Part shown: in pieces, positions 17,401-60,900 of the stretch
How positions within the stretch are numbered: position 1 is the stretch's first letter
Layout of the letters: each line of letters starts with the position of its first letter
Source: Mytilus edulis
Lineage: Eukaryota
DNA length: 64,000 bases
Reading direction: 5' to 3'
Assembly: GCF_963676685.1 (NCBI RefSeq)
Contig: NC_092345.1
Location: 104,718,001-104,782,000, forward strand
Translations under genes and position numbers: made by a program
Notes under the pieces: model-generated
The model's input: only the letters and a program-made list of their open reading frames with translations
Database searches by the model: none
Told to the model about the DNA's origin: nothing

Positions 17401-20400
17401 CATTTAAAGAGAAGTCCGAGTCAGATGTCAGAAGAGGTAACGAAAGAAAATAAACAAAATGACAATAATACATAAATAACAACAGACTACTAGCAGTTAC
17501 TGACATGCCAGTTCTTCTTCTTCTTCTTTAGGTTTCAAGCGATCCTTCAATTATTGAAGATTATTCGCCGGGCGTCGACTATAAAATTTATAATTTACAC
17601 TAATTTAGCAACAAAAAATCAAATATAACAAAATCAAAAAATCAACATAACGTATGTACATTTGAAAAAATAAATTGTGATAAAACTATATACATTTGAT
17701 AACAGAATAGTTAGGGATAGAATATGGGGATGAGAGCAGATTCTGAGATCATACTCTTGAATCCCTCTACTGTACTGCATGATACTATTTGTTGTGGCAG
17801 ATGATTCCAATTTATAACTGTTCGAGGATAAAATGAATATTTATAACTGTCTTTAGATGTTTGTATTTGCCTAAATGAGTGTGGATTGCTATGTCTGGTT
17901 CTATTGTCAAGTGGGATCAAAAGATTATGTGTAGGAACTGCAACAATTTCATGAATAATTTTGTAAAAGAAAACAAGTCTGTATCGTAAACGCCTAATTT
18001 CGAGTGGGTACCAATTTAGGTCTGTCATCATTTCAGTAACTGAGCTGGTGTTATGGAAGCGGTTGCATGAGAAGCGTGCTGCTCTTCTCTGAACCTTTTC
18101 AATTTGTAGAGTTTGTTGTTTTTGATGTGGGTCCCAAATTGTTGAGCAGTACTCTAATTTTGGTCGGACAAGAGCTTTATATGCATGAGCTTTAACTTTC
18201 GGTGATGCTATTTTTAGGTTTCTACGAATAAATCCAAGGGACTGGTTTGCTTTTGATGTCATGTTATCTATATGTTTGTCCCATTTTAAATTTGATTGAA
18301 GAGTTAGGCCTAAATATTTTGTAGAGTCAACTTTTTCTAAAGAGTGATTGTGTAATTTATAGGTAAAGTCTAAAGGTTTGCGTTTTTGGGTTACACTGAG
18401 AATGTTGCACTTATCAGGGTGAAAATGCATGAGCCAGTCCTGCTCCCACCTGCCGGCCGCTTCTAAGTCAGACTGTAATTTAAATGTGTCATCTGTTTTT
18501 TTAATTTCCCTATAAATAATGCTGTCATCTGCAAACAATCTTAATGTACTGTGTTCAATATATTCTGCCAAATCATTAATGAAGATTAAAAATAAAATTG
18601 GACCAAGCACTGTGCCTTGAGGTACCCCAGATGTTACAGGAATTTTATTTGATGTTTCACCTTCAAGGACTACTGTTTGTGTTCTGTTTGTTAAGAAATC
18701 TTGAATCCAATAATATGCATTACAATTTATACCATAGAAACCAATTTTATACATGAGGTGGTGGTGTGAAACTTTATCAAATGCTTTTGCAAAATCCATT
18801 ATTATGATGTCTATTTGGATGTTTTTATTATTTGAATTTGCAAGATCTTGAATAAATGATATTAGCTGAGTTTCACAGGAGCGGGAGGATCGAAAACCAT
18901 GTTGTAATTCATATAGTATTTTATTTTTTTCCAGATGTTTCATAATGCTACTAGCTACAACATGTTCTAATAGTTTGCAGCAGATGCAAGTCAATGATAT
19001 TGGGCGATAGTTTATGGGATCGTGTTTGTCGCCTTTTTTAAATGCTGGACATACACTTGCGTGACGCCAGTCATCTGGGATCTTTCCAGAGTTCAGTGAT
19101 GTTTGAAATATGATGGATAAGATGGGAGAGATAGATGATTTACACTCTTTTAAAATTTTACCATGGATATGATCAGGCCCAGCAGCTTTGTTGATGTTGA
19201 TATTATTTAGGAGTTTTTCTATGCCTTGTTTTTGTATCTTAATATCAGGCATCTGTGGATGTTTACTGACGCCCTTGTCTGGTATTGGGTCATCTGTTAC
19301 AGGTGTAAATGCTTTTTCGAACTGTTCATTTAAAATATTAGCTTTTGCTTTCGAGTCAGATGTTAGTGAGCCCTCTTTTCGGAGTGGTGGTATGTTAGAG
19401 CTTTCAGACTTTTGTGTTTTTATGTAACTGAACAGATTTTTTGGGAAGCTCTTTGATATAGTTGTAGGGTTTTCATCAACTGGTATCCCACATATCATAT
19501 TTTCAATATAATTCCAATAAGATGTTCTTTGTTGTTTTTGTATATCATGTTTCAATTTTTTAAGTTGGTCTAGTTTCCCTTTGCCTTTCAATTTGTACTT
19601 TTGATATTTTTTCTTGTACTTTTTCATTTGCCGTCTAATACTGTCTGTTATCCAAGGTAAATTTTTACTATTTCTCATCATTTTCTGTGGTATGTTCTCA
19701 GTGATAGTGTTTTGTAATGAGTTTTTGAATATTAACCAAAGTGTGTTTGTATCTTCACTATCTTTTTTATGTATGATCTTTTGATATATTTTGTCTATAT
19801 CCTCTTTTATTTTTTGCCAATTTGCATTTTTATATTTATATACTTTCCGTGGCTTGGTTTGGCATCTTTTTAGTGATAGTAAACATTCTAAATATACAAT
19901 ATCATGGTCTGCCTCCCCTAGTGGTGGTATGGTTTCAGACCTTCATTAAACTGATTGAAAGATTATGTCTTCATCATATGAAAATCAGGCACAATCCCTC
20001 CCGTTAGGGGTTTAGTATTATACCATAATAAAATATATGAGAAGAACATAACTCGTGGCATGCCAACAACAGGTTTTTGAATAAATGTGTTTAATTCCGA
20101 TGCAAAGACCATATAAGTTGCATCTTTATCCAATTTATACAGACTTGCATACATGTCTTTTTATTTGTCCAGTATCTTACCGATCAGTACAACCTATTGT
20201 ATTCTTTAGGAACTTATTCTTCTTTAATTTTCTGTATTTTGCATGTTTTAAAACATCAATCCATGTATCTGAAAAGATGAGAATTTGTAGAACTTATAGT
20301 GAATGTTGAATTTATTATGCTGTTCAAAAGTATATGCACAACGATCTAAAGATCTGTGCTGATGTAATGGAAATTGGTAAAGTTGATGAAAAGAATATTT

Positions 20401-21965: not shown

Positions 21966-24900
21966 ATGAGTAAATGTCCCATTTCATGGTAAGTTCAATG
22001 AAGTAGACAATTCTTCCTGTCAGTATTTTTTTAAAGACAATTTAGGGGAAAAAAATAGGAAAATAATATATGTTTTATTTTTATTTATTTTTTAAAATTT
22101 GTTCTCTTGCCCTTTTACACTGAGATGATGAGATTATTACGAATTTAATGTTATTGTCAGTCCTTGTGTCCAATTGGTCCTATTCTTTAGTTATGTAAAG
22201 TTTAAACTACAGACTTCTGCCTGGACTATAAAAATTCTCACAAGACTGGCAGCACTCATCAGAAACTGGGGACTGCTTCTATAACTACATAAATAATTTC
22301 ATAGATACATGTACACTGTGTACATACATAAGGAAAGGTATGAAAGATGTCAACAGTCTATGCTGTATGTTAAAACTGTGTAGTATTCATAATCTGTTAA
22401 TTAATAGGCGATAATATAAACACACTCAGATACAATGTCAAAACACTATAAACTTCATATTTAAAAGATTAATATACAAAAATGTACAGTATTGTGGGAT
22501 TTTATTTCCGTAATTGATTGAATTAAAATTCCTCTAATTCCTATATTGGTGGTTATGATTAAAGACAGATACAGATATTAACTGAGATACAATGTAGATC
22601 TACTTCTGTTGCTGTATATTTATATATATGTAGGACTATAAAGTGCGATGGGGACACTAAAGTATGATGGTCACGCTAAAGTGCGACGGTCTACGTTAAA
22701 GTGCGATGCTTATTTGATTAATAATTTTTACACCAAATGTCCAAGACTTACGATTAATTGATTTAATTTAACCGTTCTTTGTCGGCTGAATCACAATGTT
22801 TATTTTTTCGAGTGCTTGAAGAAGGACTTGTATCCTGCAGTCGACCATTTTACTATATAGATACCAAATAGTATACGCATACTTATCCTGCTTCTATTTG
22901 AAGCGAACGGATACATTCGAATCATTGTTTATGTGGCAGTTTACTTTGTAATCCCCTTTAAAATGCCGTCGATTTTAATGAAAAGTAAGGTCGGTAAACT
23001 AAAATAGAGATACATTTGTACATGTTTTCATGCGTGAACTATAAATTGTCTGCTAAAACATTAGTTCGTAATGTGCATTGTAGGAAAATAAAACATGTAT
23101 TTGTACTCGCTACGAAAAAGGAGAAAGATCGGCGAATATTGCATTTCTCTCGCATGTAGATTAAAACTTAAACAAATAAATGTTGCATATCCCGACAATG
23201 AACCAATTTTGTATTTTTGATTTTCAATAACAAATGTAAGGGAGGTTGTAACATTAGTGTGAACGGCATTCTATACCAATTATCCAAATATTCAATACGC
23301 TCCGAATTGTTAAAAATTTATTTTACATGATTTATAATATTTGCAAAACATAAATTAGCTTTATAACAATTATTGCTTGGTCGGACTTGTTTATTTAGAA
23401 ACAATCACTTCAGTCTACCGGTAAATTGTAAAGCCTATCACATATGTTATACCTTAGCATAATAGCTTTTACAAAAAAACTTTTTTAACCTGGATGTTTT
23501 ATTTCTTCGAATCTTACCCTTTGGACTATCCACTTTAGCGTGACACACCATCGTACTTTAGCGAACAAACAACCATTGCACTTTAGCGTGAGACGCCATC
23601 ATACTTTAGCGTAAACCCAGTGTTCTCCCCAGGCCGTTTTAGCACAGCGCTTTTAAGCGCTATTGCAATTCCCCGCTGTCCTATTGCACTGACCACAGCG
23701 CTATCCCACGCAATTGCGTCGCTATTTTTTTTTCTCGTATTTTTCAATTTTTTTTCAAATTTCCCGCTTATTTTTCATTTCGGATCACGTGATCAACTGG
23801 TTTACGATTTTTGAAAGAATTATTTCCCTTGTATTAAAGTAACTCCGCGGGACCAGTCTAATAAATTTTACTAAATGGCGTTTTTTGAAAGATCAAAATA
23901 ATTAAAGATTTCAACATTGACATCTATTTTTTTTAATTTAAAGAATATATAGAGGCATATATGAATGAAATGAGATGAAATGAATTGACCGCATTTCCCG
24001 ACGTCACTCACAAACTTGTTTTACGAACTTTGAACAAACGAGGATTTAAAAAACGATCAAACACAGGGGTCTGTTATAAATTATTTGCCAGGTTTACTAT
24101 CCATACGAACCCCGAAAATGAGCAAGTCTTTTAAGTATTCATTATCCCCTATTCGAACTTATAATTGTTTAGTCAGAAATTCTACCATTTGATAGCAATT
24201 TGATAGCATATGATTAGAAAAACAAACCCAAGCTGATACGACTTGAGAAATTTTACGGTCTCGATGTCCAGCTTGGATGAGGCCATTTAAATATTATAAA
24301 ACGTTAAGGTCATAAAAATGAGAAATCTTTATGCAAAAAAATGTTAATTCCTGTCAAACGTCGTAAGGTTAACAGTACAATGCTACAGTTGGTTACAAAA
24401 CCAAACACTGAAACAGAAGCTGACAATGACTTTATTGTTGGTCCTTACATGTTCTGCAACATTACCTGATAGTGCTAAGAAATCTTCACACAGGCATGTC
24501 TGGTGTAGACCCATCATGGAAAAAGACTTCTCCAGTTTTATACATAGATAGTATGAGGATTTACATTTAATATATGAATTTACAATGGAGAAAAAAATAC
24601 GCTTCTTCTTTATCCAGACAATAACATTAACAAACAAAGCCTCATTAAGGGGTACACTGTAACTTCCATGAGCATGATGAGGACATCATAACAAGAGGAA
24701 ACATCAACAGCATAATATAATAAAAACACATAACAAAACAAAAAGATTTTAAACATGCTTTGATACTATATATGCCCTTGAATTTTTACTAGATAACATT
24801 TTTGTTCGCTTTGGGGATTCTGTATATCGTCAGATTATCGGAATTCCAATGGGGACTAACTGTGCACCACTTATTGCGGACCTGTTTTTGTATTGTTATG

Positions 24901-27900
24901 AGTTACAATTTATGACAAAAATAAGCAAAGACCCATCGAAACAACATCTGATAAACAAATTTAATAATACTTTTAGATATTTGGATGATATTTTGGCTCT
25001 CAATAATGACGACTTCAGTATGTATATTAATGAAATTTATCCTGTTGAACTTACTTTAAATAAAGCTAATACTAACAATGACCACTGCCCTTTTCTCGAT
25101 CTTGATATCTATATCACTAATGGAAAGCTGAATACTAAAATTTATGATAAAAGGGAGGATTTTTCATTTCCTATCGTTAATTATCCGTTTTTAGATGGTG
25201 ACGTTCCCTTGTCACCATCTTACTGTGTTTATATATCTCAACTTGTACGATTCGCTCGTGTATGTAACAATGTTTTAGATTTTAACGAGAGAAATTTATG
25301 TATTACTGAAAAATTATTACACCAGGGTTTTCGATATCACAAACTAGTCAAAACATTTACTAAATTTTATCATCGGTATAAAGACATTATTCGTAAATAT
25401 AGCTCAACATGCAGACTTTTAATACGTTCAGGTATTTCACATCCAATTTTTTATGGTAATATTCTTTATAAAGCACAAAGGTGTCAGTATTCACCTCAGA
25501 AACTTACAAAACCTTTGAATAGACTTATTAAGAAGGGATATAATTACGATACTGTTGTCAAGTCATTAAAGATTGCATATTTTGGCGTTAATATTGAGTC
25601 ATTGATAAGGTCTTTGCATCGGAACTAAACACATTTATTCTAAAAACAGTTGTTGGCATGACACGGGTTATGTTCTTCTCATATATGTTATGATGGTATG
25701 ATACTAAACCCCTAACGGGAAGGATTGTGCCTGATGTTCATATGATGAAATCATAATCTTTCAGTCAGTTTAGTTGAAGTCTGGAGCTGGCATGTCAGTT
25801 AACTGCTAGTAGTCTGTTGTTATTTATGTATTATTGTCATTTTGTTTATTTTCTTTGGTTACATCTTCTGACATCAGACTCGGATTTCTCTTGAACTGAA
25901 TTTTAATGTGCGTATTGTTATGCGTTTACTTTACTACATTGGTTAGAGGTATAGGGGGAGGGTTGAGATCTCACAAACATGTTTAACCCCGCCGCATTTT
26001 TGCGCCTGTCCCAAGTCAGGAGCCTCTGGCCTTTGTTAGTCTTGTATTATTTTAATTTTAGTTTCTTGTGTACAATTTGGAAATTAGTATGGCGTTCATT
26101 ATCACTGGACTAGTATATATTTGTTTAGGGGCCAGCTGAAGGACGCCTCCGGGTGCGGGAATTTCTCGCTACATTGAAGACCTGTTGGTGACCCTCTGCT
26201 GTTGTTTTTTATTTGGGCGGGTTGTTGTCTCTTTGACACATTCCCCATTTCCATTCTCAATTTTATTACAAATGTACAAACAAACCGCGCGCCGCGATAA
26301 AGTTACTGAGCATTGTCGAAAATGACGTGATTACCACAGCGCTATCCAAAAATCTTGGGGAGAACACTGATTAACCATCGCACTTTAGAGTCCTACATAT
26401 AAAATATATATATATCTTTTAACAGATACATGTACATTCCCACACCATTAAACAAAATAATTTCCACTAACTTCTACTCTACACTAAGTCCAGTTCCAAA
26501 CTGGTCCTTGATTTGACACACAGTTAAGACTCATCATAAAATACATAAACTTTATCCAAAGGTTTTGAGATGTCCACAACCTCTTTTCCCTACTTCATGA
26601 TAGTATTTTTTTCTGATTGTCAAGGAAAACAACTTTCTTTCTGTACATTTTTACACTCCTATGTATGCTACATGTAAATGCATCATGATTCGTCCCCTAA
26701 ATGTTGTCTGTTTGCAGTTATTTTAAATTAAAAAAAGTTGTTGATAACAGTCACACATGTTATATTGTATTATATTAGGAATGTTCCTGTTGATGCTGGA
26801 CACAACTTCTTCTTCACTCAAGAAGCATTCAACAAATATTCTAAGCCAGAAACATATGAAGAGAAGATCAGAAACAGATACGAGTTATTCCCACTAAAAG
26901 ATTCTCATCTTGGTGTGAATTCTAAATCTAAAAAATCAAAGAAAAAAGGGAATGAGAAAAAAACAAAAAGTTGGGATAAGGAAGATAAAGAATCAGTGTA
27001 TAAAGTTCAAACACTCAGTGATGCAAGTGAGGAAGAAGATGAACTCATATTTGATGTGGAAGAAGATTTTGAAGAATTTGGTGTTGTAAAAAAAATTACA
27101 CCAAAACAGAACAAACAAAAGGCTAAATCAAAAGCAAAAAACCAGAAGGTCAAAGACAATGCATTACCTGACACTGAAAAGAAGAAAACTTTGCAGAAAA
27201 ATTATTGTCAACATACTAGTCCTATAGAATCTGATACAGATGAAATAGTGTTACAAAATACAGAGCCTCGTATTGAACATTTAAAAGAGTTTGGTGTAGA
27301 CAAGTCTGATGATACAAGAGAGAAGGAACTCTCAGAACACACTGTGGATATCAATGAAATAGAGGAATTTGGTATTCCTAAAACTATATCAAATCAAAGT
27401 GATATTTTGGAAGGTTCTAAGACAGGAAACCATCAACAGAGTGAGAGTAATAAGGAGCAACAGAAAAGAACAGAAGAATTTCCATGGGACATTAAATCCA
27501 GAGATAGGTTAGTAGTAGTTTCTTTACTGGAAATTATCTAAAGAATGTTTTAAATGACAAAAAAAAGGTTGTTTACCATGCTGATAAAGCCTGCTGTCTG
27601 AAAAGATGAGTAATTGTTTGTAAATGTGGTCATGATTTATATATTATATATAGCTATAATTATTGGTAAACAGTGCTATTTCAAACTCCATGGTTTTATT
27701 TGAAAATAATGGAAAAAATAAGTGAAAACATTTACTTTAATTTATAGAATGAATGACCAATACTTTTTTACGTAGAACTAAAACAAAAATGTAGCTGATT
27801 TCGTATTTATAAGAATTTAGAATTAATTTTTTGGTTTTCTTTAAAAAAAATAATAAAAGGGAAAAAAAAGGTTGATGGGCAACCATTTATATGTTTTTTC

Positions 27901-33900: not shown

Positions 33901-36900
33901 TGATTTGACTGTATTGGCCATTATTATGAAAGATTCTGACATGGAATCCAGAAATTTAGTTCACAATTTCTCTTCAGTTTGTTCCAGGGGTCATTCCTCA
34001 TCAACAAAAGTTGGATTCTATTTTTTTAAAACAAGGAATCACAGCAGAAACTAACTTGCAATGATTATTTCACAATTTTCACTCCCTAATCATTATCCTT
34101 ATATAAGGTCTAAATCGATATTTGGAAATAATTTCTATCAAGTTGGAAATGTGTAAATATGATATTTAAACTTCCATAAACTGCAACTTGGAATACATAT
34201 AAATTATGAAAGAGCTCAGAAGACAAACAAAAAACTCTTATGATATATCTTTATTAAATTTAATTCAAAATAATTCAGAGATCATTGGTGATGAAGTGTA
34301 ATGTATATATATGTAGTTAAATTTGGTGTTTATTTAAATAGATGAAGTTTAATTTGAAGTCATCATTTTATAATTGAACCAAATAAAATACTTTCTCAAA
34401 AATGCTATAGTTATATTGAACGTTTATCATTCACATCATTCAAAATGTTTTGTTTTTAAATTCATTGTAATCAGATGTAATCATGATTACTTTGCCAATG
34501 TAATCATTAATTTAATCAGATAATTTCGGAAATGATGTAATCATTAATTTAATTTAATCGTACAAATGACAAATAATTCAAATTTAATCAATTACATTGA
34601 AAGTAAACGGACCCATCTCTGGTCTTGTGTAGAAAAAAAATACTCCAAAAGTTTGCACAGTCGTTGTGCACAATATGTAAATGTGCATATTATATGTTGA
34701 TGAAATTCAGCTCATTAATTTTGCCAATCGTTGTTTTGGATAAAACTTGAAAGGCAAAGCCACAATAAGCAAAGGCTAATAGATGTGGTATTTTCTGAAA
34801 TATACATATACAAGGCAAACAGGTTTATAACTGATTTTGAACAGTAACAAATATTTGTCTACAAAAGATGCGGCCATACAATGTTTTAGATTATGTATAT
34901 ATACCTTTCAGGGAACAGTACCAAAGCTTGTTGTACCAAACATGAATGTAGGAGAAAGACCAAAGATACCACTAGACTATGATTCTATAGCCAAACATTG
35001 TCCATGTGATCACAATATAAAACCTTCCAATGTTTGGAACAATGAGGTAAAATTAGCAATCATGCATTCTTTTAGAATACCCATGTGTATTAATTTTGAA
35101 ATCATTTGAAGCTTTGAATAATTTAGGTACAACTTATTATTCTAAAGCAATAAATCAAAACACAATTTATGTAAAATATACAAATAATGGACAATTCTAT
35201 ATCATAAAATTGATCGAATGTAAAAAATACAAAATGTCTACAAAATTCTGAAAATTTAACTTGCAGCCTTGTAGCAAGGACCAGAACTGTGATGTTTTAT
35301 CTCAGAGATCCAAAGTTCACATCACCATATCAGCCAGTGCAATCGCGTGTATTGTAAATAACCATGCTCCAAACTACAACAGGGAGTGGGAGATACCATT
35401 TACTGTAAAGGATTACCAGCTTCAAGGTATGTATTGGGAAGTTATGGGAGATACCATTTACTCTAAAGGATTACCAGCTTCAAGGTATGTTTTTGGATGC
35501 CATTTGAAACTTCAACACTTCCAGCCATAATACACTTAATGATGTTATAGCTTTTCATTTCAGTCCAATTTTCCGACTTCAACTCTTAAAGCATAATTAA
35601 CTCTCAGAAATGTATCCAGAATATAAAGGAAAACAAATTTCAAAAATATTAATAAGCTGCTTGTTTTTGTCCTTAATAAATGTTTGTAAGTAAAATGATA
35701 ATGTATTCTTACTTTTAGGACATGGAAAAAAACAATGAATCCTAATCTATATTGAAAAACATACAAATTTAGAGAGAAGAATGTTATTTATTTGTAAATA
35801 TAAAAAAGAAGATGTGGTATGATTGTTTATAAGACAACTCTTCACAGGAGAGCAAAGACACAGAAATTAACAATTATAGATCACTGTAAGGCCTTCAACA
35901 ATGAGCAAGACCTCATTTTCAATTTTGCACTACCTGTATCTTGAGACAAACCTCTGTGGTCCATCCTTTTTAATATTAAAAAAAAAAAGATTAAAAAGTA
36001 CATCTGTTAAACTTTTTTTTTTTTTATAGTTTAGATGATTGATCAATTTTTATTTTTTCAGATGGAGATAAAAAGTTTATGCATCGTGTTGTGTACATTG
36101 ATAATCCACTTCCTGCTAAGGAGCTCACAGGGCGAGACAAAAATACAATGTTCTATAAATATGCTTTGCGTTCTCATATGGGGAGACTTAATCAAACAGG
36201 TCACATCTTTACAATGAATCAGAAAATAGAATCAGATTCTACAAGTCCAGAATCCTTAAAGTTACCAAGGAAACAGTCTTCTGTAGAACAGTCGCATCAT
36301 TCAGAAGTGACGGTGCATGACACTGAAAATGTAGCATCTCTGTTGTCACCCATTAAATCACCTACAAATGAACAGAAGAAGAAGATGAACAAAGTGAAAA
36401 GAGGAGAAACGGTCAAAGATTGTGACCAAGTTGAGGGAGATGATCCTTTTGGAATGATGGAAGTTTCCATGGAAGATTTAGAAACATTTGGGATGGATAT
36501 GTCAGCAAACAAAACATTCATGAAACTGGGAGAAAAGAAGAATGTTAAAAGTGTAAAAGAAAATTCACCAGTTGAAGTCTGTTTAGCTGCTGAAAAGAAA
36601 CTTTCAGCTAAAGATAGTTTCACTGTTGGTAAAGCCACTAAAGGCCAAGGGTCAGAGCACAGTGGAACCTTGAAATCAAATGAATTGGATATAAGCAAGG
36701 ATACAGAATTAGTAGATTCAGTGCAAGAAACTTTTTTATCTTCAGATGTGGATTGTAAAACAATGGACCAAGATAAGAGTGAGAAAGAAAAATTAAAACT
36801 GGCAGAAAATGTTCAATCTCCCAAAGTTATAGGAAATGATGAAGAAGTTGGCATTACTGATAAATTAATACCTGATGTCATGTGTGATAAAAAAGTTGAC

Positions 36901-39900
36901 AGAACTAATACATTATTACCTGATGTCACGTGTGACTTAAATGATAAAGACTCAGTTTCTAATTCTGTTGTAGTTTCAGATAGTCTCAAAATTAATGAAA
37001 CATTAGTCAATACTTCTGAATCTAAAAGTAAAGAATCTGGTGATAGTGTTAGACAAGAGTTGAAAGTAGATATCTCCTCACAACCTTGTGACTTACAAAT
37101 GAGTTCTGCTAGTGATGACGAGTCAGATGCTCTTGTCATTGATGAACCTGAAAACGATAACATTCAAACAGTTGCTATGGAAACACCAGCTAGTCCTGTC
37201 CCAGAAACACCTCTTAGTCCTGTCCCAGAAACACCTCTTAGTCCTGTATTATTTCGAAGCTCATTTGGTAGTGCTTTCAGTCCTCCTACAAGTCCCAGCA
37301 AGAGATTACGTACAGCAATTGACATGAATGATATAACTCCAAGAGGAGTTATGTCCCCTGACAGGACAGACAGAAACTCACCTACTAGTCCAGATCATAA
37401 CACATTTAGTTCTCCTGAAAGTAAGCCATGTAAAATCATACCCCTACAGAGGGATAGTGAGGAAGAGTTTGTAACTGATAATTCCTATATTTATCCTCGT
37501 CCAGTTAATTTATTTTATCCAGTTGCCAATCTTAATGAAATAGGATTAAGAAGGAAAGTTGAGGAGATATCTGAAGAGAACACTGAAAGTAAACCGTCAA
37601 TAGATATATCATCTACAGATCTCCTGAGTGAATATAATACTTCAGACAACAACTTAAACAAGATTCCAGACTCCACAGCTCTTGGTATTAAAACTGTGCC
37701 TCTTTCAGATGACACAACTGTATTAAAATCAGATCTCCACACATGTAGTGTAACACAAGCTGATGAACTACCTGACTGTATTTATAAATCAGGACCAGAT
37801 AGTCTGTGTACAGAGGTTTTAATTAAGTCTGTGAATTGTGCTGATCTATCTGTTCAGAACCAAGATTCTGATACGTCTAATACTGCATGTGGCAGTCATG
37901 AACTTATAGGTGGCAGTCATAATGTTGAAACTGTAATTATTGATACTAACACTGGTAGAGATAACCTTGAATCTAGCGATAATGAAATGTTACAAATAAA
38001 TACTGCTCTGTCAAAAGATGACAGTGAATCTTCAGATGAGATTGTCTCCCCTAGATCAAAAATCTTAAGAAAGAATAAAGACAGAAGTAAGAATTGTGAT
38101 GGTCAGAAAACTAAATTACGAGCTGCAGTTATTGAGAGTGATTCTGAGTCGGATGAAGAGATTGGATCAAAAAAGCATCCAATGACTGATAGATGTAGCA
38201 CTGATACAATAAGTCCCTTAACCAATAGTGAAATGATTGAATCGGGTAAAAGACCTTTAAGCAGATCTAATAGTACAGAAAACGTTTTCCAACCATTACA
38301 AAGGAAAAGACATAAGTCTGATAAGAGCATAGATGTCAAAACTGAAGGTAGCATGAATGTAGAGGCGGAAAGTGAAAATCTAGCAGAAATGGCTTGTACT
38401 CGTAGAAAAACTAGGTCTTCTGTAGGATTAAGGAAACAAGAGACAATCTTAAATAAGAAAACTTTAGAAAAACTACCTTCATCACCTAAAAAATGTAAAT
38501 CTGTTGATGATGATCAGCCATCTGATTTTTGTGAAGAGTCTATGCCAACCAAAAGACAAACTAGAAGGAGCATGGACAGCCAGGACCAAGAACAAAGATC
38601 CAGTAAACTAGCTATATTAGATAGAGTCAAGAAAAATTTAAGGTCAGTATAAAGGATTAATTCAAAGTAAAATTCCATAGGGGGCTGTAAAAAAACTTTT
38701 GATTGGTTGAAATACAATGAGTATTTGACAAAGCTTGCATGGTTTGTTTGTTGTTAAATTTTGATTGATTTATAGTTTTCCAACCATGTGTGGAAACATT
38801 GTGTGTAGCCAAGAAACAACAGAATGGTTTAAAATATATTAAATTTGTTGTCATGGTAACTCATTAAATGTGGAGTTTTTTCTTCTTTAAACACTTTGTA
38901 TTTGAGTATAGTTTGAGCACATTTAAGAACATTTATAGTTCCTGATTAATTTGCACAAATTTTGGCCAAACAAAAGCCTTATTGCCCCTACTCTTTTGCA
39001 TATTTCAATATTCTGCAGAAAAAATATACATTACATAATTACATAATAGAAATACATATCAGGATTAGCACAACTATGGCATATTATATATTGCATGTTG
39101 CATTTTGTATTATGTTTATATGCTTTTGATAACCATGACTACTGAGTACTAATTAAGGGGTTCGACGAGTTACAGAAAAGAGCGACGATTTACAGAAAAG
39201 AACCGAAAAGGACCAAAAAGAACCGGAAAGGACCGAAAAGAACAGAAAAGGAGATCGACGTTTTTTGTAATTGAAGAAAATTAGCAAATTGCAAATTATT
39301 TAAGTCTATTATAAATGAAAATTGGTGGAGTAAACAGTCTTGCAAAATTATATAATATTTCTACAGGTTACCTAAGTTTGTATTCCGAAATGAATTAATT
39401 GTCAAAAATAACTGAAGTACAACAACCATTAAAATATAATCACATCATACGTGAATAATTAGCTCTAAAAGTCCCACATATTTTACACTCTTTAGAAGTT
39501 TTAGTGATGAAATTTCTATACATAACCTTCAGACGTCGTCTCGTCTGATGCAATAAAAAAATAATTGTTGCTGTCTAATGAAAGTATTTTCACCCTCTCC
39601 TTTACGACAGATATACGATAAAATAACTAAACAGGTACAAATAAACAAACAAATTAAAACAAAACTCAGCTTTATAAGCAAACTGGTACCTATGCGACTG
39701 TACATTATGACAATCTATTGCCGGTTGCTGTGTGTGTGTGTATTTTTCTTGTACCGCTGTTTCATTGACGTGAGCCTCAAATCTTATTTTATTTCAGTAT
39801 TTGACTTTCGAATTCGAATTGTATTTTGCATTCAACTGTCCAAAATGCCTTCACAGGTGTATAGTTGTTAACACGAAATAACTATACCAATACCATAATT

Positions 39901-48900: not shown

Positions 48901-51900
48901 ACATTAGACCTTTGACTATTGTCTATACCATCCAGTGGACAACATTAGACCTTTGACTATTGTCTATACCATCTAGTGCCGTAGTGGACAACATTAGACC
49001 TTTGACTATTGTCTATACCATGTAGTGGACAACATTAGACCTTTGACTATTGTCTATACTATCTAGTGAACAACATTAGACCTTTGACTATTGTCTATAC
49101 CATGTAGTGGACAACATTAGACCTTTGACTATTGTCTATACCATGTAGTGGACAACATTAGACCTTTGACTATTGTCTATACCATCTAGTGGACAACATT
49201 TGACCTTTGACTATTGTCTATACCATGTAGTGGACAACATTAGACCTTTGACTATTGTCTATACCATCTAGTGGACAACATTAGACCTTTGACTATTGTC
49301 TATACCATGTAGTGGACAACATTAGACCTTTGACTATTGTCTATACCATGTAGTACAACATTAGACCTTTGACTATTGTCTATACCATCTAGTGGACAAC
49401 ATTAGACCTTTGACTATTGTCTATACCATCTAGTGGACAACATTTGACCTTTGACTATTGTCTATACCATGTAGTGGACAACATTAGACCTTTGACTATT
49501 GTCTATACCATGTAGTGGACAACATTAGACCTTTGACTATTGTCTATACCATGTAGTGGACAACATTAGACCTTTGACTATTGTCTATACCATCTAGTGG
49601 ACAACATTAGACCTTTGACTATTGTCTATACCATCTAGTGGACAACATTTGACCTTTGACTATTGTCTATACCATGTAGTGGACAACATTAGACCTTTGA
49701 CTATTGTCTATACCATGTAGTGGACAACATTAGACCTTTGACTATTGTCTATACCATGTAGTGGACAACATTAGACCTTTGACTATTGTCTATACCATGT
49801 AGTGGACAACATTAGACCTTTGACTATTGTCTATACAAACATCTAGTGGACAACATTGGACCTTTGACTATTGTCTATACGATCTAGTGGACAACATTAG
49901 ACCTTTGACTATTGTCTATACCATGTAGTGGACAACATTAGACCTTTGACTATTGTCTATACCATGTAGTGGACAACATTAGACCTTTGACTATTGTCTA
50001 TACAAACATCTAGTGGACAACATTGGACCTTTGACTATTGTCTATACGATCTAGTGGACAACATTAGACCTTTGACTATTGTCTATACCATGTCATTTTA
50101 TAAAAAATGAAATGATACTAATAAAGTTTATAAACAATTTTCAAAGATTATGTTATTATATTTTTGATAAAACCAAACATGTTTAATGTCAAACTGCAAC
50201 TATGTACTTCTGGATTAATAATTTGTTGTCTTTGTTTCCAGATAAAAATGAACCATTAAAACGGAAGAGAGGACGTCCTCAAAAAAGAAAATATGTCCAA
50301 GGTATTTATTATTTAACATGTAATGAATTTTTTAAGGAATTATAATTTATATAATAGACCACTATAAAGTTAGGAGATGATTGCCAATGACACAACTAGC
50401 CACTAAAGATTGTGGTTTACCCATAAAATAATGAATCCACATTATAGATCTTCAATATTATTTGTAGGATCTCCATTTTATGGACATATGTGTATAACTA
50501 GCATATCTTGTGCTGAAAATTATGTTATACACTGCTAATTATTATGTACTGACTTTTCACAGAGGACACTCAAAGTACAGATTTGTCTAAGAGTGAGAAG
50601 CAGGATTCTGAAATGGAAGTACATAAAGGGGAGACCACTCAAATACCAAATGAGGAAGATATTACAAATCTTACAGTGACAAAATCAGTGGCTAATCAGG
50701 AAGACATTACAAATCTTACTGTGACAAAATCAGTGGCTAATCAGGAAGACATTACAAATCTTACTGTGAGAAAATCAGTGGCTAATCAGGAAGACATTAC
50801 AAATCTTACTGTGACAAAATCAGTGGCTAATCAGGAAAATACCAATACTATTGAGTCAAACACGACAGATGGTGTAGATGTAAATGAAGACAAAGGTCAA
50901 ACTACAGTAGATGACATCAATATAAATCATAAAAAAGACAACTTAGAAAAAGGAAAGTCAAAAGAAACAGGTATTGATTGATGTTAGAATAAAGATAAGA
51001 ATATTAAAAGAAAAAGAAAACAGGTATCTAACAGTACTAGAGTAAAGATTAGAGTAAAAAAAACAAAGATCATACATTAAATATTAAAAATAAAAAATTC
51101 CAATGGATATCTAACCATGATAGGCTATAAATATGCTGTCAAAATGGATAGGCTATAAATGGCTATAAATAGGCTGTCAAAATGGATAGGCTATAAATAG
51201 GCTGTCAAAATGGATAGGCTATAAATAGGCTGTCAAAATGGATAGGCTATAAATAGGCTGTCAAAATGGATAGGCTATAAATAGGCTGTCAAAATGGATA
51301 GGCTAAAAATAGGCTGTCAAAATGGATAGGCTATAAATAGGCTGTCAAAATGGATAGGCTATAAATATCCTATCAAAATGGATAGGCTATAAATATGCTG
51401 TCAAAATGGATAGGCTATAAATATGCTGTCAAAATGGATAGGCTATAAATATGCTATCAAAATGGATAAGCTATAAATATGGTATCAAAATGGAAAAATC
51501 CACCATATAAATAAACATCAAAATGAAATGCAAAATACAAATATTTAACAGTGCAAAATTTCCACAATAATTTCTACAAACTGATTGCAAACTTGTAAAC
51601 TTGTTAATGAGTTAAACAAGCAGTAACGTTATGGTTTTGATTGGTCTACATATCTGAATAAATTACTGATTGTTATCTATTTATAGAACCAGCCATTGTT
51701 GAGAAGACCCAGCCACAAAAAGTGGACACCCACGTAAAGATAGCTAATACATTACAGAAAACAACAGTCCAGAAAGGACAAGAGAAGTCTGTCAATCCTT
51801 TAGAGAATATTCTGCAGGCACAAGAAAGACAGAAGTGTGTTAATCCTTTAGAGAATATTCTGCAGGCACAAGAAAGACTGTTGATTAATCCAAAACATCA

Positions 51901-54900
51901 CAGAGGTTTGTTTATATCACTGTTTATCAAATTATTCTTAGTAGAGAAAATAAAAAAAATACATATATGTAAAACAACAAATTATGGTTGCAGTCCCTAG
52001 TGTATAAGCAAAAAAATATAAATTATGTATTCCGTACGGAATTCTCTCGACATTGGTGTCCATTTAAAAAACTTCCTGTTTACCGATAAACTTCCTGTTT
52101 GCAGATTTTGGAGCTGAAACTTTTCCGAAAATGTCTAGGAGTATTATATGACCAATAAACTTTTTTCTCTCATTTCTTGAACCACAAAGGGGGTGCGCAC
52201 TATACACACCAAAAGACGGTAGTCAGGAATTTTTGAATTCCCTTCCATACACTGCCATACACAGAACTATTTCCCTTAAAGTTTAGTGCTTTGTTGGTCC
52301 ATGTGTTTATGAAGTCTGATTTTCTTTGCCACATCAGCTTCTCTATCTGTATTCATCCTTCCTGCTTTAAATTGTGTTAAATTTAACCTTTTATGACAAG
52401 ATGGCAGACTTTCGTCAAGCTTATACTTTTTTAATTCATTTGGGAATTCCTTTTTTTTTCTTTTGCAGACCAAGCTCAACAAGAGTACTTCTCCCAGTTC
52501 AAATTTCCTGCTCGACATAATGTGACTTATCATCTATGGTCACTAGGGGCATACAATGTTATGATCAGGTCTGGGTACCATGGATTATATAAAGATACAC
52601 AGCAGAAGGTTAGAAGTTCACTATATTAACAAGTCACGACAGTCACACTATTAACCTCGTCTGTAATAATGGATGTTTGCCAGCTTGACAGCTTAAATGA
52701 TGGAATATTCAATTTGTATTTCAAGACTACACTCTGAAAAATAAGAATAGATCATTTAAACACTGAATACCATCACCAAAAACCAACAAACATTTAAAAA
52801 ATACAAAAAACAAGCAGAATAAAAAAAAACAAGGTGTGACATCACTTAAAACTAAAAGAACAATTCTTTGAAAGATTTTTACAAGGATATATATATTACA
52901 TAAAGAAATATCCCTGTCAAAACAGATACATGTATCTCCCTTTATTGTTGATAATTCCATATTTCAAACTGAAAAGATGTATTAATTTTTTTAAATATTT
53001 AGCTAAATTGTCTCTGAATGACCTAAGATCTGTCTCTAAATAGCCCTTAAGTGGTGTTCAACTAATTAAAACAGTTTCAGTTTCTGAATTTGTAAAAAGA
53101 CATGAAATGAGTTTAATTACACTTAGTCGCCATCATATTTTGACCTTAACTTTTTTACTCATGGTTTTAGATTATTGACAAAATTTTGATTTCATATAAA
53201 GATGAAGAACATGTATATATATATTTAGGTATCTTTTATCCATGTATCTCCTAAGATGGAGTACCAGTCTAATTATGGTATAGAACAGCTGACTGTTAGT
53301 GAGGTATCCAAAGATTGGGCGTCGGCTTATGTCAGACCAAACTGTAAAATAATCAGAGGTATGTCAGACCCAACTGTAAATTATCAGAGGTATACATTTC
53401 TGCTCACCTTAAATTGTGATAAGAGGACAAATTATCTTACCTCCTATACATTTCCAGGAATATGATTGGTTAAAAGCGTCCGCGTGCAAACCGTGTATAT
53501 TTGATATTAGGTTAGTAGGGAGGCAGGGCTTGTCTCATACACGGTTAGTAGTGGAGTTACGTCCCTTTATATTCCTTATTAGGTAAGAAGGGGGCGGGGC
53601 TTATTTCATACACGGTTAGTAATGGTGTTATGTCCCTTTATAAAAAACAAAACGGTACTGAGAATAAATCTTAAAAGTTCCAACAGACGAAGAAATTGAT
53701 GATTAAGATTGAATTAAATTCATTTAAACCTTACAAGTCGTTATTCTTGGCATCTGTTTTTGTAGGATCAATGGAAGTATTTTCTTAGTGCTCACAGTAT
53801 TGAAGACTTGCTCAATTTGAGAATCACTAGTATTAATTTCACCCGTTAAGATAGTCGGTAAGATAAATTCGTTACATAGTGTGCTAGTGACGTAATATGG
53901 TATATATGGGGTCAGTAAATTCCATATGGGGATTCGAGCTTCGCTCTCACCCCATATGGAATTTACTGACCCCATATATACCGTATTAGGTCACTAGCAC
54001 ACTATGTAACTAATAATATTTTATTTTATCTTACCTCCTATACATTTCTATGAATATGATTGGTTAAAAGCGTCCGCGTGCAAACCGTGTATATTCAATA
54101 TTAGGTTAGTAGGGGGGCGGGGCTTATTCCATACACGGTTAGTAGTGGAGTTACGTCCCTTTGTATAGTAAAGATGGCGTCGACGAGAGGTTCGAAACGT
54201 TTCGCAACCACAACAAATGAAGAAATTGATGCAAAAAGATTGAATATTAATGCGGAAAATACCTTAAAAGCAAACAGAAAGTGTGCTAATATACTGCGGG
54301 ACTATCTTCAGGAGAAACAACAAGATGATGAGTTTGAAAAATTTGATTGTGTCCGACTGAATGAGACTCTGTGTCATTTTTATGTCGACCTACGGAAAGG
54401 GGATGGTAAACGATACAAAGCATCGTCACTGGAGTCCATCATGCATGGCATTAACAGATATCTTAAGGCTCCTCCGCACAGTAAAACGTTTGATATTGTG
54501 AAGGATTCTCCATTTAATGACAGTAACGCAAACTTTAAAGCCGTCTTGGCAGAATCGAAACGTTTTGGACTAGGTGACGTTGAACATTTCCCCGTTATTA
54601 ATGAAGTTGATCGTGAAACACTGTATACATCTATGTATCTTTCATCTACAACTCCAACTGGCCTGGCAAATAAAGTTCAGTTTGACATCAGACTTTATTT
54701 TTGCAGAAGAGGAATTGAAAATATGCACAGTATGACCAAATGTACCTTCACAATTAAAACTGACATTAAAACAGGATTAAAATATGTTACTAAGGCAAAA
54801 GATGAACTTACTAAAAACCATAGGGAATCGGATAAGGAGCTTGTCTCTGGAGTAATGCCAGAATCACCAGGTGAGTGTATGACAATAAAGGGGGGGGTGT

Positions 54901-57900
54901 TATTAGACAATTGAAAGGATGAGAAAAAAAAGATAATTAGAACATTACACCATACTAATTGTGTATAAAAAATATATGATAAAATTGAGAATGGAAATGG
55001 GGAATGTGTCAAAGAGATAACAAGCGACCAAATAAAAAACAACAGCATTACTAACTTTATTTCAAATATACAACATTGGCGATTGCCACACAGACATGAA
55101 TGACAATCAATGATATTCCTGAAAATATAAAAACTTAAAACAACAAGTACATTTATTACTATAAATAGTTATGAAAGGTAGCAATATCATTATCTAATTA
55201 TAGACTAAAACAGGAATCTGTAATTTATTGTTGTGTTGTTTATTGCTGTAAGTAAAATGCATATCATACATGTATTTCTCATTTGAATAAATTTACATGT
55301 GTCATTTCGGAACCTTCTACATGTCTGATATATCAATGTAAATACAAGAAATACATATACCCATTGTTGAAGGCTGTACGGTGACCTGTCACTTATAGTT
55401 AAACGTTGTTAATGTCTGTGTCATTTTGGTCTCTTGTGGACAGTTGTCTCATTGGCAATCATACCACATCTTCTTTTTTATATATAGTATCTACATGTAC
55501 GTCTTTGTTGTTGATGTTAAACCTGAAAATATCTAAATGATTACTCTATATTTCAGGATCTGTGTATTGTCCTGTTGCCTCATACGAGAACTATATTCGT
55601 AGATTACATCCATCAAATGATCGTTTATGGCAGAAACCGTTGGATAGTTTTTCCACAGAGGCTGATGTCTGGTATTGTAATATGCCACTAGGAGAAAAAA
55701 AACTAAGTACATTTATGTCAGAACTCAGTAAGAAGTGTAAGTTGTCTATTGTTTATACCAATCACTCAATACGAGCAACTGGAGCCACAGTTTTATCACA
55801 AAACATGTATGGATCTGCGCAAATAATGGCAGTCACTGGGCACAAGTCCGTACAGTCACTCACAACGTACCAGCCTGTTGATACTAACGAGAAAATTAAA
55901 ATGGGTAAAACTATATCTGACAATCTTGTGCAAAGAGCAGTTATTGCTTCCAACCATACATGCAATAGATCCAAAAGTGATGATAGTGGGTCATTTATGG
56001 AACAAATACAAGATATTGACATTGGAGATATTTTAGGAGACTTTGATGACAATGGGCCGAAACCCATCCAATACAGACAAACAACCACATGCATGCAGTC
56101 GACAAAACCTCAGAGTCAGATCTTCTATGGCAATGTTACTGTTATACACAACCTTACCATCAACAAGTAGTTGTGAGAAAATTATCACACTTGTCATGTT
56201 GACATCAACATTTATTTTTCAATTTGTACACAAAAAATGTGTTGCATGTTGACTTCGACACTATTTGTCGCCTAAATGTATTGAACATTTTGTTTTAATT
56301 AATATTGTTATATCAAGGTTATTGATATTAAATTGTTAATGTTGACATTTGTTTTTCTCTTTCAATAAGACCAATGAAAGTAGATTCTTAAAGTTGTAGA
56401 TTTGAACACTTTGATATAAAGACCTGGTATGATTGTAAATGAGACAACTCTAGTTGAGATTCAACAAATAAAGATAGTCGGTAAGATAAATTCGTTACAT
56501 AGTGTGCTAGTAACCTAATACGATATATACGGGGTAAGTAAATTCCATATGGGGTTCGAGCTTCGCTCTCACCCCATATGGAATTTACTAACCCCGTATA
56601 TATCGTATTAGGTCACTAACACACTATGTAACTAATATTCTCTTAAATTAAAAAATAATTCATAGACTTGAATTTATATTGATATTCTTTGTTCAAGCTC
56701 CCATGAATGATTTTTATTCCAGTGCGACACAATTCTTTTTATCATAGTTTATTAATGTTTCCATGTCATTATGACTTTCACTTTCACATTGGTGCATTTT
56801 CATGTAGAATGCTAATATTATTACATCATTGTTCAGTGGTATCATATTTACATATGGGAATATTGATTGGAACACCCCAAATAAATTTTGATGCTGCCAA
56901 TTAGCTGGCATACAATATATTCATATTTTGCCATAGGTGACGTGTGTATTTAAAGCATTTGGAGAATGTGTTATTAGAATGTTTGATTTATTCAAACGAT
57001 TGTACTGTAAATTCACAAATTATTGCTTGCAAAGTAAGTAAGTAAGTATATCATTTATTATAGTGACATGTGTAGTATATATAATATTACATAATAAGAA
57101 TACAATAGTTAAATAAATTTACACCCGGCCCGTTGGACCTATAAGTCACTTTAAACCTAATGTTCAAATTTGCATTACGCAATGTGATTGTTACTTATAA
57201 AGAAGTTCCTTTCTTTTACAGAAAAATAAATTTAAATATTTAGCAGTTTGTCTTTGATGAAGTGTCATTAAATTAGCAAATGTTCTATTATCAATAAAAT
57301 GTCTATCAAGGTTCACTGATTCAAATAATAATTGTCTTAAATTATGGTAAGCTTTACAGTACAACAAGAAATGTTTTTCATCTTCAACAGATCCGTCATC
57401 GCAGAAAGTGCAAAATCGTTCATCAGGAGCCTCATTTCTAAATCGTCCAGTTTCAATGCGTAAGGGTAGAATACCACAGCGAAATTGTGCCATAACTGAT
57501 CGTTCCTGTTTCTTAATGTTCATTTTGACGTAAAGTTCAGTCTCGTACTTCTGTTTAATAGTAATGTAAGTCCTTAATTTGGGTAGAGAAGTGATTTTAC
57601 CAGTCCAATCGTTTTCACAGTATTCCATAATCTTTGTTTTAAAAAGTTCAATGTTGCATAAATTTACATATTCATAGCAACTGTCCATGTCCACTTTGTG
57701 AAAAATTTCCTTCATCTGAGAGCTCCACTGGCCCGATTTATTATAGTTCCAAAGAAAAAGCTTTTCGTTAGTCTATCATTGTCCATTTTAACAAGCCGAT
57801 TCCATCTTCTAACCATAGAAATCCACCGTCTTAAAGTTGGCTGTAACCATCCTAGTTCACTGTTTAGAGAAACTACTGGTGCAAATCTGTGTAATCCCAA

Positions 57901-60900
57901 AAAATATCTAATAGCACGGTTTTGTACAGATTCAATGGAGTGGTATGTTTTATATCCCCAAACATCTGCGCAATAATCGACTGGTACAACACACGACTCG
58001 AAAAGGGTTTCAAATGTTTTAAATGCAACGTCCTTAAAATTGTGAATCTTTGATATCATCCCTCCTAGTGCCCGTCCTCCAGCTTTACCTAATGTTTCGG
58101 TGGCAATACTAAAATCCATTTTATCATTGAAAATAATGCCAAGATATTTGTAGTGACTTACATATTGTAAACTGTTTGGTCCAATCTTGAAATTAAAGTT
58201 GCTTCGTGGGACACGCTGTTTTCTAAAATGCATGACATTTGATTTTGAACAGTTAACACTGAGTCTCCATCGTTGGCACCAACTGTATAACACATCTAAG
58301 CAACGTTGCATATCATTTTCGTTCTCTGTTAGAATAACAATGTCGTCAGCATATAAGAGAAGAATGATTTTCTCATTATCAAAAGGTATTCCAGTTTCTA
58401 GATCTTTTATTTCAGTAGCTAAATCGTTGACAAATAAAGCGAACAATGTAGGCGATAAATTATCCCCTTGGCGTACCCCGTTTGAACACTGGAACCAATT
58501 TGTACGATGATCATTTACGCAGACACATGATTCTGTGTCAATGTATAAGCTAGAAATAGCATTATACATGTTTCCGTCAATACCGTTTAATTGCAGTTTG
58601 TATTGTAATAAATCCCTATCTACATAATCAAATGCTTTTTGCAGGTCCACAAAGGTAGCAAATGTTGATTTCCTATCCTGAATAAGGCAATTCAAAGAAA
58701 ACACATGATCCTCACATGACCTATCTCTTCTAAAACCATTTTGTTCATCAACAATTAATCTGTTGTCTTCTAAAAATTTTTGCACTCGGTTATTTAAAGT
58801 AGAACTGTAACATTTCGCAATTACCGAGAGTAAACTAATCCCTCTGTAATTCATTGGAATTCTCAAGTCAATAGCAGAACCTTTCGGAATTGGTCGAATT
58901 ATTGCTTTCCTCCATAACGACGGAACTTTTCCTGTGTCGAAACAGAACTGAAACAACACCTGCAATAGTTTAATAATTGGTTCATTTTTAAGCACTTCAT
59001 TATAAATTCCATCTATTCCAGGAGCTTTTTTCTCTTTCAAATGTAAAACAACTTTTTGTATTTCGTCTATATGAATGTTCTGATTCAGTATATCATTTGG
59101 TATATACAACGGGTCAAGCATATTATCTTCTAAAAGTCTTTTATGTCATTATGCGTTTTCATAAAATTCATCATCGTAATCGTCCTTGATGTTCATGTAC
59201 AAATTTCTAAAATCGGATTCCCATTTGTTTATCACTGTTTTCTCATCGAATGACGTAGAACCATCGTCATTAACACATTCCATCGGAATAGCATTCTCTT
59301 CTTAGGACCAAGTTTTTGTAATTCTGCACAAAATTTTTTCGAATCTTCTGTATTCAGAGTTTCTATTTGTAAAGATAAATCCTGCTTATATTTCCGTTCA
59401 TGAAATCGTAAACGCTTATCGAATTTCTTTTACGCCATAACAAATTTGTCCCGTGTCTCACGTTTCGCTTTACTGGTTCTAGATTTCCTAAATTGTTTTT
59501 CGCAACTGTGCATAGTTACCCATAAATCACTTAATTCTTGATTCCAGAATGGTTTTTCGTGTTTAAAATGTTTTCTTGTTTTTCTAGACGCCTCATGATA
59601 TGGTATTGTTTCTTCCATTTCTTTTTTAACAAGTTTGCATAATTCTTCGTAGACCGTATCAATGTCTTCTTGCTGTTCTCTGCACAGTTCAATTTGACGA
59701 ATAACCATATGTTTAGCCTCTTTCGTGATGTCGGAGCACATAAAGTTTGACAGTATTTCTTTAAATCTGAATCTTTTCTTTGTCGACAAAACGTTATGTT
59801 TCACATTTTCAGATTTAATTATTAAGTTTTCGACATAATCTAATATTGCAATTAGTTTGGCATTTTTTTTTTTAAAGATGACAAAAATGCAAATTTATTT
59901 ATCACGATTTCAGGAAAATAAGCATACAGATATAGTCATCAAATTCTTAATACAGATTCTTATTATTGCAGTACTCATCCACTTGCATTATCTCCATGAA
60001 TAAAAACCCTGCAATAGTTCTTGAATTCACAGTATGTAGATTAACACATGTTGTTTAGAGTGAAACTAAATTAATCTGAACTGACTTTTTATTCTATTTC
60101 AGCCAGAGTCAATCCTTTGCAATCAGATATTGTCTCTATGAAGGAAGAAGAATTAAGTAAAATGTCAACAATTTCTCATGGTTTTAAGTAAGTTACTTTA
60201 AAAGTAATTGACTTTCAAAAAAGATCTGTTTATTATCTGATTATATTTGATTTCAAGTGTAATAGATTATTTTCATATTACTGACAGAATTGTTTAACAT
60301 TTGAATACCAGTGCACCTCAACTGATAACCTCCATGTCACCTTGAGTTTAATAAGGAAGAAATGACAGCTACATGTGTTTTAATTTTAAAATTGTTAAGA
60401 ATTTCTTCATCATTTTTTTCAGTCCCGCCAATGGATTTCAGATGTTAGCCAATGTGTTCCATAGACTTCATCAGTAAGTATTATTCATTGTTGTCCAGCC
60501 TGCAACTTTTGTTGCAGAAAGCTCGACATAGGGTTAGTGATCCGGCAGCGGCGGCGTTAGCTCACTTCTTAAAAGCTTTATATTTTAGAAGGTGGAAGAC
60601 CTGGATGCTTCATACTTTGTATATAGATGCTTCATGTTACGAAGTTTCTGTCTGTCACAGGTCCAATGTCCTTGACCTCATTTTCATGGTTCAGTGACCA
60701 CTTGAATGTTGAATTCTCTCTTATTATAAGTAATAGGATAACTATATTTGATATGTGCGTACCTTGCAAGGTCCTCATGTCTGTCAGACAGTTTTCACTT
60801 GACCTCGACCTCATTTTCATGGATCAGTGAACAAGGTTAAGTTTTGGTGGTCAAGTCCATATCTCAGATACTATAAGCAATAGGGCTAGTATATTCGGTG

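Follow-up and report, generated by a model that had tools for sequence, protein, structure and literature searches.

Two long palindromes in the genome of the mussel Mytilus edulis raise the question of what keeps the arms of such a structure complementary while their sequence changes. They lie in a stretch of 64,000 nucleotides (nt; assembly GCF_963676685.1, contig NC_092345.1, positions 104,718,001 to 104,782,000 of the forward strand), here called the window and numbered from its first letter. A first-pass annotation, made from the letters alone, regarded them as two copies of the terminal palindrome of one element, with each difference between the copies mirrored in the opposite arm. Each palindrome is, however, the 3' end of a separate element, one non-autonomous and one autonomous, which we assign by their features to the CryptonA tyrosine recombinase transposons; it had been missed that the palindromes come from two such transposons and contribute to the recombination site. 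We favour, at a rough probability of 0.55, the explanation that the element is excised and joined end to end, and that the palindrome then folds one of the element's strands into a site for a single strand exchange followed by replication.

The first palindrome (53871..54010) has 61-bp arms (53871-53931 and 53950-54010) around a loop of 18 nt and pairs at 59 of 61 positions, exactly as first described; the second (56494..56632; arms 56494-56554 and 56572-56632, also 61 bp, loop 17 nt) pairs at 58 of 61. The GCGAAGC motif reported on the bottom strand of the loop was found in both copies (53938..53944 and 56560..56566, minus strand), where it folds as a short side hairpin. Seven pairs differ between the copies, in addition to a 1-nt indel in the loop. 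Mirroring applies to two of them, pair 30 (G:C to A:T) and pair 37 (T:A to C:G), and fails for pair 43, which changed on both sides and was left unpaired (C:G to A:A), and for pairs 14, 19, 22 and 28, which changed on one side. Three of the four right-arm differences coincide with the six changed left-arm pairs, which is above chance (hypergeometric p ~0.002), and the 100 nt upstream of the two palindromes are only about half identical.

A search of the genome (1.37 Gb) with the first palindrome gave 1833 candidates, of which 40 were scored and 30 loci were fetched. In these loci a unit of about 590 bp, starting with TTATCTTACC and matching 53432-54015, ends in the palindrome. This unit, N1 (53432..54015, plus strand, 584 bp), has no open reading frame and shares its ends with 32 other full-length copies in L001-L030; the exact 30-mer at its right end matches the genome 615 times, so that at least 615 copies exist. 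The second palindrome terminates a unit of 2.6 kb that begins like N1 at its 5' end and contains a two-exon gene; this autonomous element (54026..56637, plus strand, 2612 bp) has shared ends and a second copy, 98.6% identical, at L062. In three of four sequencing runs, a contig runs from one flank straight to the other, without either element. By its length this empty allele equals the flush join plus 10 letters, and the 10 bp between the elements (54016..54025, plus strand) would therefore be host DNA and the left half of the target of the second element. The lengths thus suggest two insertions 10 bp apart, without target duplication. A single element with two terminal palindromes is ruled out by the boundaries of the ~590-bp repeat and by the empty-allele contigs. 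A 53-nt block containing GGGCGGGG occurs twice in N1 (53519-53642) and once in the coding element (54113-54165), close to a CCAAT-like box that precedes the ATG, and is possibly a promoter module.

The gene of the autonomous element consists of exon 1 (54174..54870), a predicted GT-AG intron (54871..55556), which shows depth peaks and contains pieces of common host repeats, and exon 2 (55557..56170), all on the plus strand. It encodes a tyrosine recombinase of 436 amino acids (aa) without internal stop. Exon 1 carries a QRICH1-like domain with R179 in box I and K214, and exon 2 carries H302-x-x-R305, H328 and Y337, which completes the catalytic set R-K-H-R-H-Y, with roles assigned by motif. 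Matches to QRICH1, DUF3504 and Phage_integrase on the single exons all fall under the curated Pfam cut-offs; PF12012 and PF00589 are carried by homologues of an intronless relative that is 51-55% identical. The named close homologues come from mussels and other molluscs. For the predicted structure of the intronless relative (pLDDT 89), the best fold match is QRICH1, followed by Cre (TM ~0.6), with XerA, IntI and lambda Int ranking below, and no telomere resolvase or protelomerase is present among the 30 of its 62 fold matches listed.

This DUF3504-group recombinase is all that the element encodes. Its exons are the only ones inside the element, with no HUH Rep/helicase gene, which excludes a Helitron or Helentron; an integron proper (IntI/attC) is excluded by the DUF3504-type enzyme lying inside the element and by the absence of a cassette array. 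Neither target-site duplications nor long terminal repeats were found in the junction tables, in the length of the empty allele or in an insertion into a tandem repeat (L093), and non-autonomous copies outnumber coding ones, with 615 N1 ends versus a few coding copies at more than 90% identity. Judged by gene, catalytic set, junctions and excess of non-autonomous copies, both elements are best classified as CryptonA. Like the animal CryptonA elements described so far (PMC3212892; Glomhopper, PMC13465315; both as far as the available text goes), they combine a single DUF3504/Phage_integrase-type gene with abundant non-autonomous derivatives, lack a target duplication and have short bases common to the junctions. 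Four features set them apart from those descriptions: the hairpin at the 3' end, a subterminal repeat of 9-10 bp that matches the 5' end, the palindromic nature of the target and the restriction of the crossover to one side. In the available part of their paper, Kojima and Jurka (2011) found no terminal repeats in animal Cryptons (PMC3212892), and the word "hairpin" is absent from the available parts of this and of the 2026 CryptonA paper (PMC13465315); Kojima (2018) classes Eulor5/6 as Cryptons, with hairpins unmentioned in the text available. Our literature search found no description of Crypton hairpins among the papers listed; Repbase and Dfam entries or supplements may mention the palindrome.

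The bases next to the hairpin show how it could act in recombination. The 5' end of N1, TTATCTTACC (53432..53441), is the reverse complement of a subterminal repeat, GGTAAGATAA, which together with a 5-nt spacer, ATTCG, is located at the foot of the hairpin (53857..53871 in N1, 56480..56494 in the autonomous element). The right recombination end consists of the GTAA of the arm and a 6-nt spacer, CTAATA (54006..54015 and 56628..56637; all on the plus strand). Owing to the complementarity between the 5' end and the bases that precede the hairpin, an end-joined strand folds to a duplex site with a mismatched spacer. Such joined ends exist in the genome as 14 head-to-tail junctions GTAA-CTAATA-TTAT with fixed spacing, versus none for TAATA plus one extra base. 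When a natural junction is folded, the stem runs on through the joined ends, with GGTAAGATAA pairing with the 5' end, and leaves spacers of 5 and 6 nt opposite each other, with a single mismatch and a single bulge. The flanks of the insertions define a palindromic target, RTA-N8-TAY (R1 57/64, A3 54/64, T12 78/81, A13 71/81, Y14 80/81).

Junctions were read in three sets of loci (25, 24 and 30) chosen without regard to the right end. The element's spacer was found in 62 of the 67 readable right junctions (17/18, 22/23 and 23/26 by set) and, within one mismatch, in 4 of 71 left junctions (3/21, 1/23 and 0/27), these four loci keeping the right spacer too; no locus of the three sets had the reciprocal arrangement. 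The crossover is fixed at a single place, the right-hand edge of the 6-nt spacer, which from the usual cutting geometry of such recombinases we take to be the bottom-strand cut. A single junction class is expected from one strand exchange plus replication, whereas both classes would result if two staggered exchanges took place without homology. At three loci representing two independent insertions (L362 and L366/L367), the 6-nt spacer is present at both feet of the hairpin. These symmetric-foot insertions went in by the opposite end; their body is inverted, and their loop, as in the other copies, faces the recombined end. In one family (L070, L071, L072, L120 and L122), the recombinase gene points away from an upstream hairpin, the fixed form of this body inversion.

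The hairpin is conserved in form far beyond N1. In eleven representatives of families and subfamilies its length is 134-140 nt; ten of them pair at 55 to 60 of 60 ungapped positions, and the eleventh has a 1-nt bulge. Over the first 55 positions, ungapped, six other families show 188 left-arm differences from N1, of which 176 are mirrored in the right arm, although an alignment across distant families may set non-homologous positions in one column; the safe form of this result is that self-complementarity holds within every family, with differences of 40-75% between families. RNAalifold, applied to nine representatives, finds two-sided changes at 53 of 68 pairs, and the ATTC of the foot spacer is conserved in eight (sub)family representatives. 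Among 40 more distant recombinase loci, hand-picked from 150 matches with multi-copy groups preferred, a long hairpin lies up to 2.6 kb downstream of the gene in 29, one of the same type lies upstream only in 3, and none of that type is present in 8; where a group has several copies, the hairpin marks their common end, and the 9-10 bases preceding it are complementary to the 5' end. An alignment query of viral and metagenome contigs yielded 80 metagenome loci from other hosts, many of them repeats of one element, with a hairpin downstream of the gene in 23 of the 41 loci with enough sequence and upstream in 2 of 32; a query with a single protein had given no matches.

The apex is polar. In a survey of 32 hand-picked family representatives, a cGNAg or cGNNAg apex occurs on the bottom strand in 25 and on the top strand in one, and it was seen in other hosts too. 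The sequences GCGNAGC and GCGNNAGC are stable mini-hairpins as DNA and less stable as RNA (PMC13037366, available part). An RNA-type structure was rejected, as the top-strand motif cUNCGg fits 11 of the 32, fewer than the DNA GNA rule. Other abundant gene-less palindromic repeats (L102, L137, L046, L054, L049, L121) have the same kind of apex and are probably non-autonomous Cryptons of further families; several adjoin or nest, with the L102 element inside such a repeat and tandem junctions at L111 and L116. Other families have a branched apex with several tandem or opposed hairpins around one gene (L133-L136, L139), and L110-L113 contain 87-bp tandem repeats between gene and hairpin.

Single genomic copies behave differently from families. 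Of the first 83 N1 right ends listed, 81 were fetched as new loci; the hairpin is full in 43 and deleted or rearranged in 38. At pairs 27-61 of the full hairpins we counted 32 left-only and 25 right-only changes, one double change left unpaired and no compensated change. With 0 of 58 changes compensated, upkeep of symmetry in place is ruled out for intact copies, and the one-sided decay argues that symmetry is renewed in founder elements. The first-pass proposal that symmetry rather than sequence is maintained thus holds across subfamilies and families and not within single copies, whose arms diverge independently. Its second proposal, that one arm is copied from the other, is directly visible in rearranged copies: 11 of the 81 contain sequence taken from the opposite arm or pieces of the loop in reverse. 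A G-G mismatch at pair 22 of the N1 founder serves as a marker. The letter of the right arm was found in 72 left arms versus 397 normal ones, and that of the left arm in 9 right-arm matches (8 loci) versus 615 normal ones. Arm copying is frequent and mostly right-to-left (72 versus 9 matches), with the proviso that the search patterns differ in length and that some of the 72 may reflect an ancestral state. Most converted copies are rearranged (10/14 versus 2/30, p 2e-5), and they sit on different body variants, which points to largely recurrent template switches.

These observations can be combined as follows. The ends of the element would join, and one strand of the excised element, possibly a single-stranded circle, would fold into a recombination site that looks double-stranded. 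The tyrosine recombinase of the element would cleave the folded bottom strand and join it to RTA-N8-TAY by one exchange, which replication would resolve. Compensated changes likely arise in one step, by recopying of one arm from the other via template switching, and such variants would persist if only well-paired elements found new subfamilies; this selection on founders is our inference. The proposed folding is supported by the intact R-K-H-R-H-Y motifs and the Cre-like fold of the relative, by pairing and a length of 134-140 nt being kept while the arms diverge, and by the bottom-strand polarity of the apex, the inverted-body insertions, the one-sided spacer, the folded head-to-tail junction and the target motif. 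Several points weigh against it. No circle or single-stranded form was observed, the sequencing runs found being contigs. The calculated folding energies of the two strands are nearly the same (-80.0 and -79.3 kcal/mol, the GNA bonus lying outside the model) and do not discriminate between them. In L067, an autonomous relative, the loop is intact yet flipped and the ends are normal, and the more distant families keep the hairpin while their core motif is not exactly the same. Biased heteroduplex repair or strand-biased circles made from duplex could also yield one junction class, and cruciform extrusion on duplex circles would fit most of the data.

The last of these is the main rival, although we regard it as unlikely. 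On a duplex circle the palindrome would extrude as a cruciform under supercoiling, with the mini-hairpin as nucleus, and either present the same folded site or mark the end for strand-biased copy-out, as in the bacterial elements known as SEs, for which strand-biased circles from duplex donors are known (PMC9345347, available part). Both strands fold well, and sporadic flipped loops exist in other families (L067/L069, L084/L188, L117, L222). A symmetric cruciform needs no loop polarity, yet the apex motif is confined to one strand in 25 of 32 families and tracks the recombined end.

More doubtful still is that the hairpin is a priming or replication signal, similar to a primase site or origin, with recombination at an ordinary duplex site at its foot. 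The mini-hairpins GCGAAAGC, GCGTTAGC and CCGAAGG, which sit at single-strand priming sites of phages and plasmids (PMC13037366, available part), are all present at apexes of these families, and the right-to-left bias of arm copying would agree with such a role. The conserved mismatched foot spacer, the complementary 5' end and the inverted-body insertions would be left unexplained. A priming function of the apex is nevertheless compatible with folded-strand integration.

Parvovirus-like hairpin transfer, which the first-pass annotation had proposed to look for as flip/flop inversion of the loop, or replication of a hairpin-ended linear form by a telomere resolvase, is highly improbable. A long terminal palindrome, an asymmetric loop and a few flipped copies would be in line with hairpin transfer, but among 133 ends a complete reversed loop was found once versus 104 forward loops, not at about 1:1, which largely refutes it, as does the scarcity of right arms with the left-arm letter (9 versus 615). 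Each element has one hairpin, the crossover and junctions lie at the foot of the stem rather than on the palindrome axis, and the fold matches listed include no protelomerase. At L378, L084/L170 and L188, in two families, a reversed loop is joined straight to the terminal spacer and host DNA with the second arm missing; these are possibly dead-end products of folded-strand integration. Equally remote is a functionless palindrome whose arms are kept alike by in-place conversion, since, despite the arm-copied products in 11 of 81 copies, intact copies decay one-sidedly, founders retain 134-140 nt, loop polarity and foot asymmetry although 38 of 81 hairpins are deleted or rearranged, and hairpins of other hosts lie downstream of the gene (23/41 versus 2/32 upstream).

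The nearest parallel to folded-strand integration is found in integrons, where recombination at attC involves a folded bottom strand and one exchange plus replication (PMC3458562), with unpaired features of attC setting the strand (PMC5027507; available parts of both). Judged by their genomic footprints, the CryptonA elements would resemble attC x attI recombination in a folded single strand, in pairing over sequence, in strand-setting unpaired bases and in one exchange with replicative resolution. The same comparison of how the system works can be made with integration of the CTX phage at dif, the core of which we take to be similar to the joined core GTAA-N6-TTAT. In contrast to integrons, our elements are eukaryotic, encode the recombinase inside the element, use dispersed AT-rich targets and form no cassette array; the site is complete only after joining of both ends, and the enzyme fold is closer to Cre than to IntI. 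Whether the CryptonA elements of animals correspond, in eukaryotes, to the cassettes of integrons, with a recombinase that reads a folded single-stranded site and copy-and-paste by one exchange, we consider evenly balanced; the strand would be picked by the mismatched spacer and the GNA-capped apex. Helentron/DINE-1-type elements have subterminal inverted repeats, short 3' palindromes, insertion beside TT and an HUH Rep/helicase. The present elements are similar in their subterminal inverted repeats, 3' palindrome and insertion beside TT, and differ in their tyrosine recombinase and 61-bp arms. Bacterial SEs differ in having several genes and imperfect 19-bp terminal repeats, and "hairpin" is absent from the available part of the paper describing them (PMC9345347).

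Mobility of animal Cryptons has so far been covered by a tentative model, excision as a duplex circle, with ends reported as featureless. With the hairpin, complementary ends, target motif and one-sided junction, a first in vitro test could start from well-defined substrates and unambiguous mutants. The same features supply a rule by which the boundaries of Cryptons can be annotated, as can many palindromic repeats of marine invertebrate genomes that are so far unclassified. If our explanation is true, a eukaryotic tyrosine recombinase would act on single-stranded DNA, possibly as a compact single-strand DNA integrase, and the ancestral substrate of the domesticated ZMYM/QRICH1/KCTD1 domains would be known.

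The rest of the window contains further repeats and reading frames. Reverse transcriptase frames of retroelements are located at 57712-59145 and 17711-19942 (both minus strand, both with RVT_1 matches), and another at 24753-25628 (plus strand) is Penelope-like by eye. An open frame of 869 aa at 36043-38652 (plus strand), without Pfam match, is probably a long host exon. Two tandem arrays, with units of 28 bp and 45 bp, lie at 51077-51550 and 50604-50873, respectively, and the 45-bp array keeps an open frame of 15-aa repeats.

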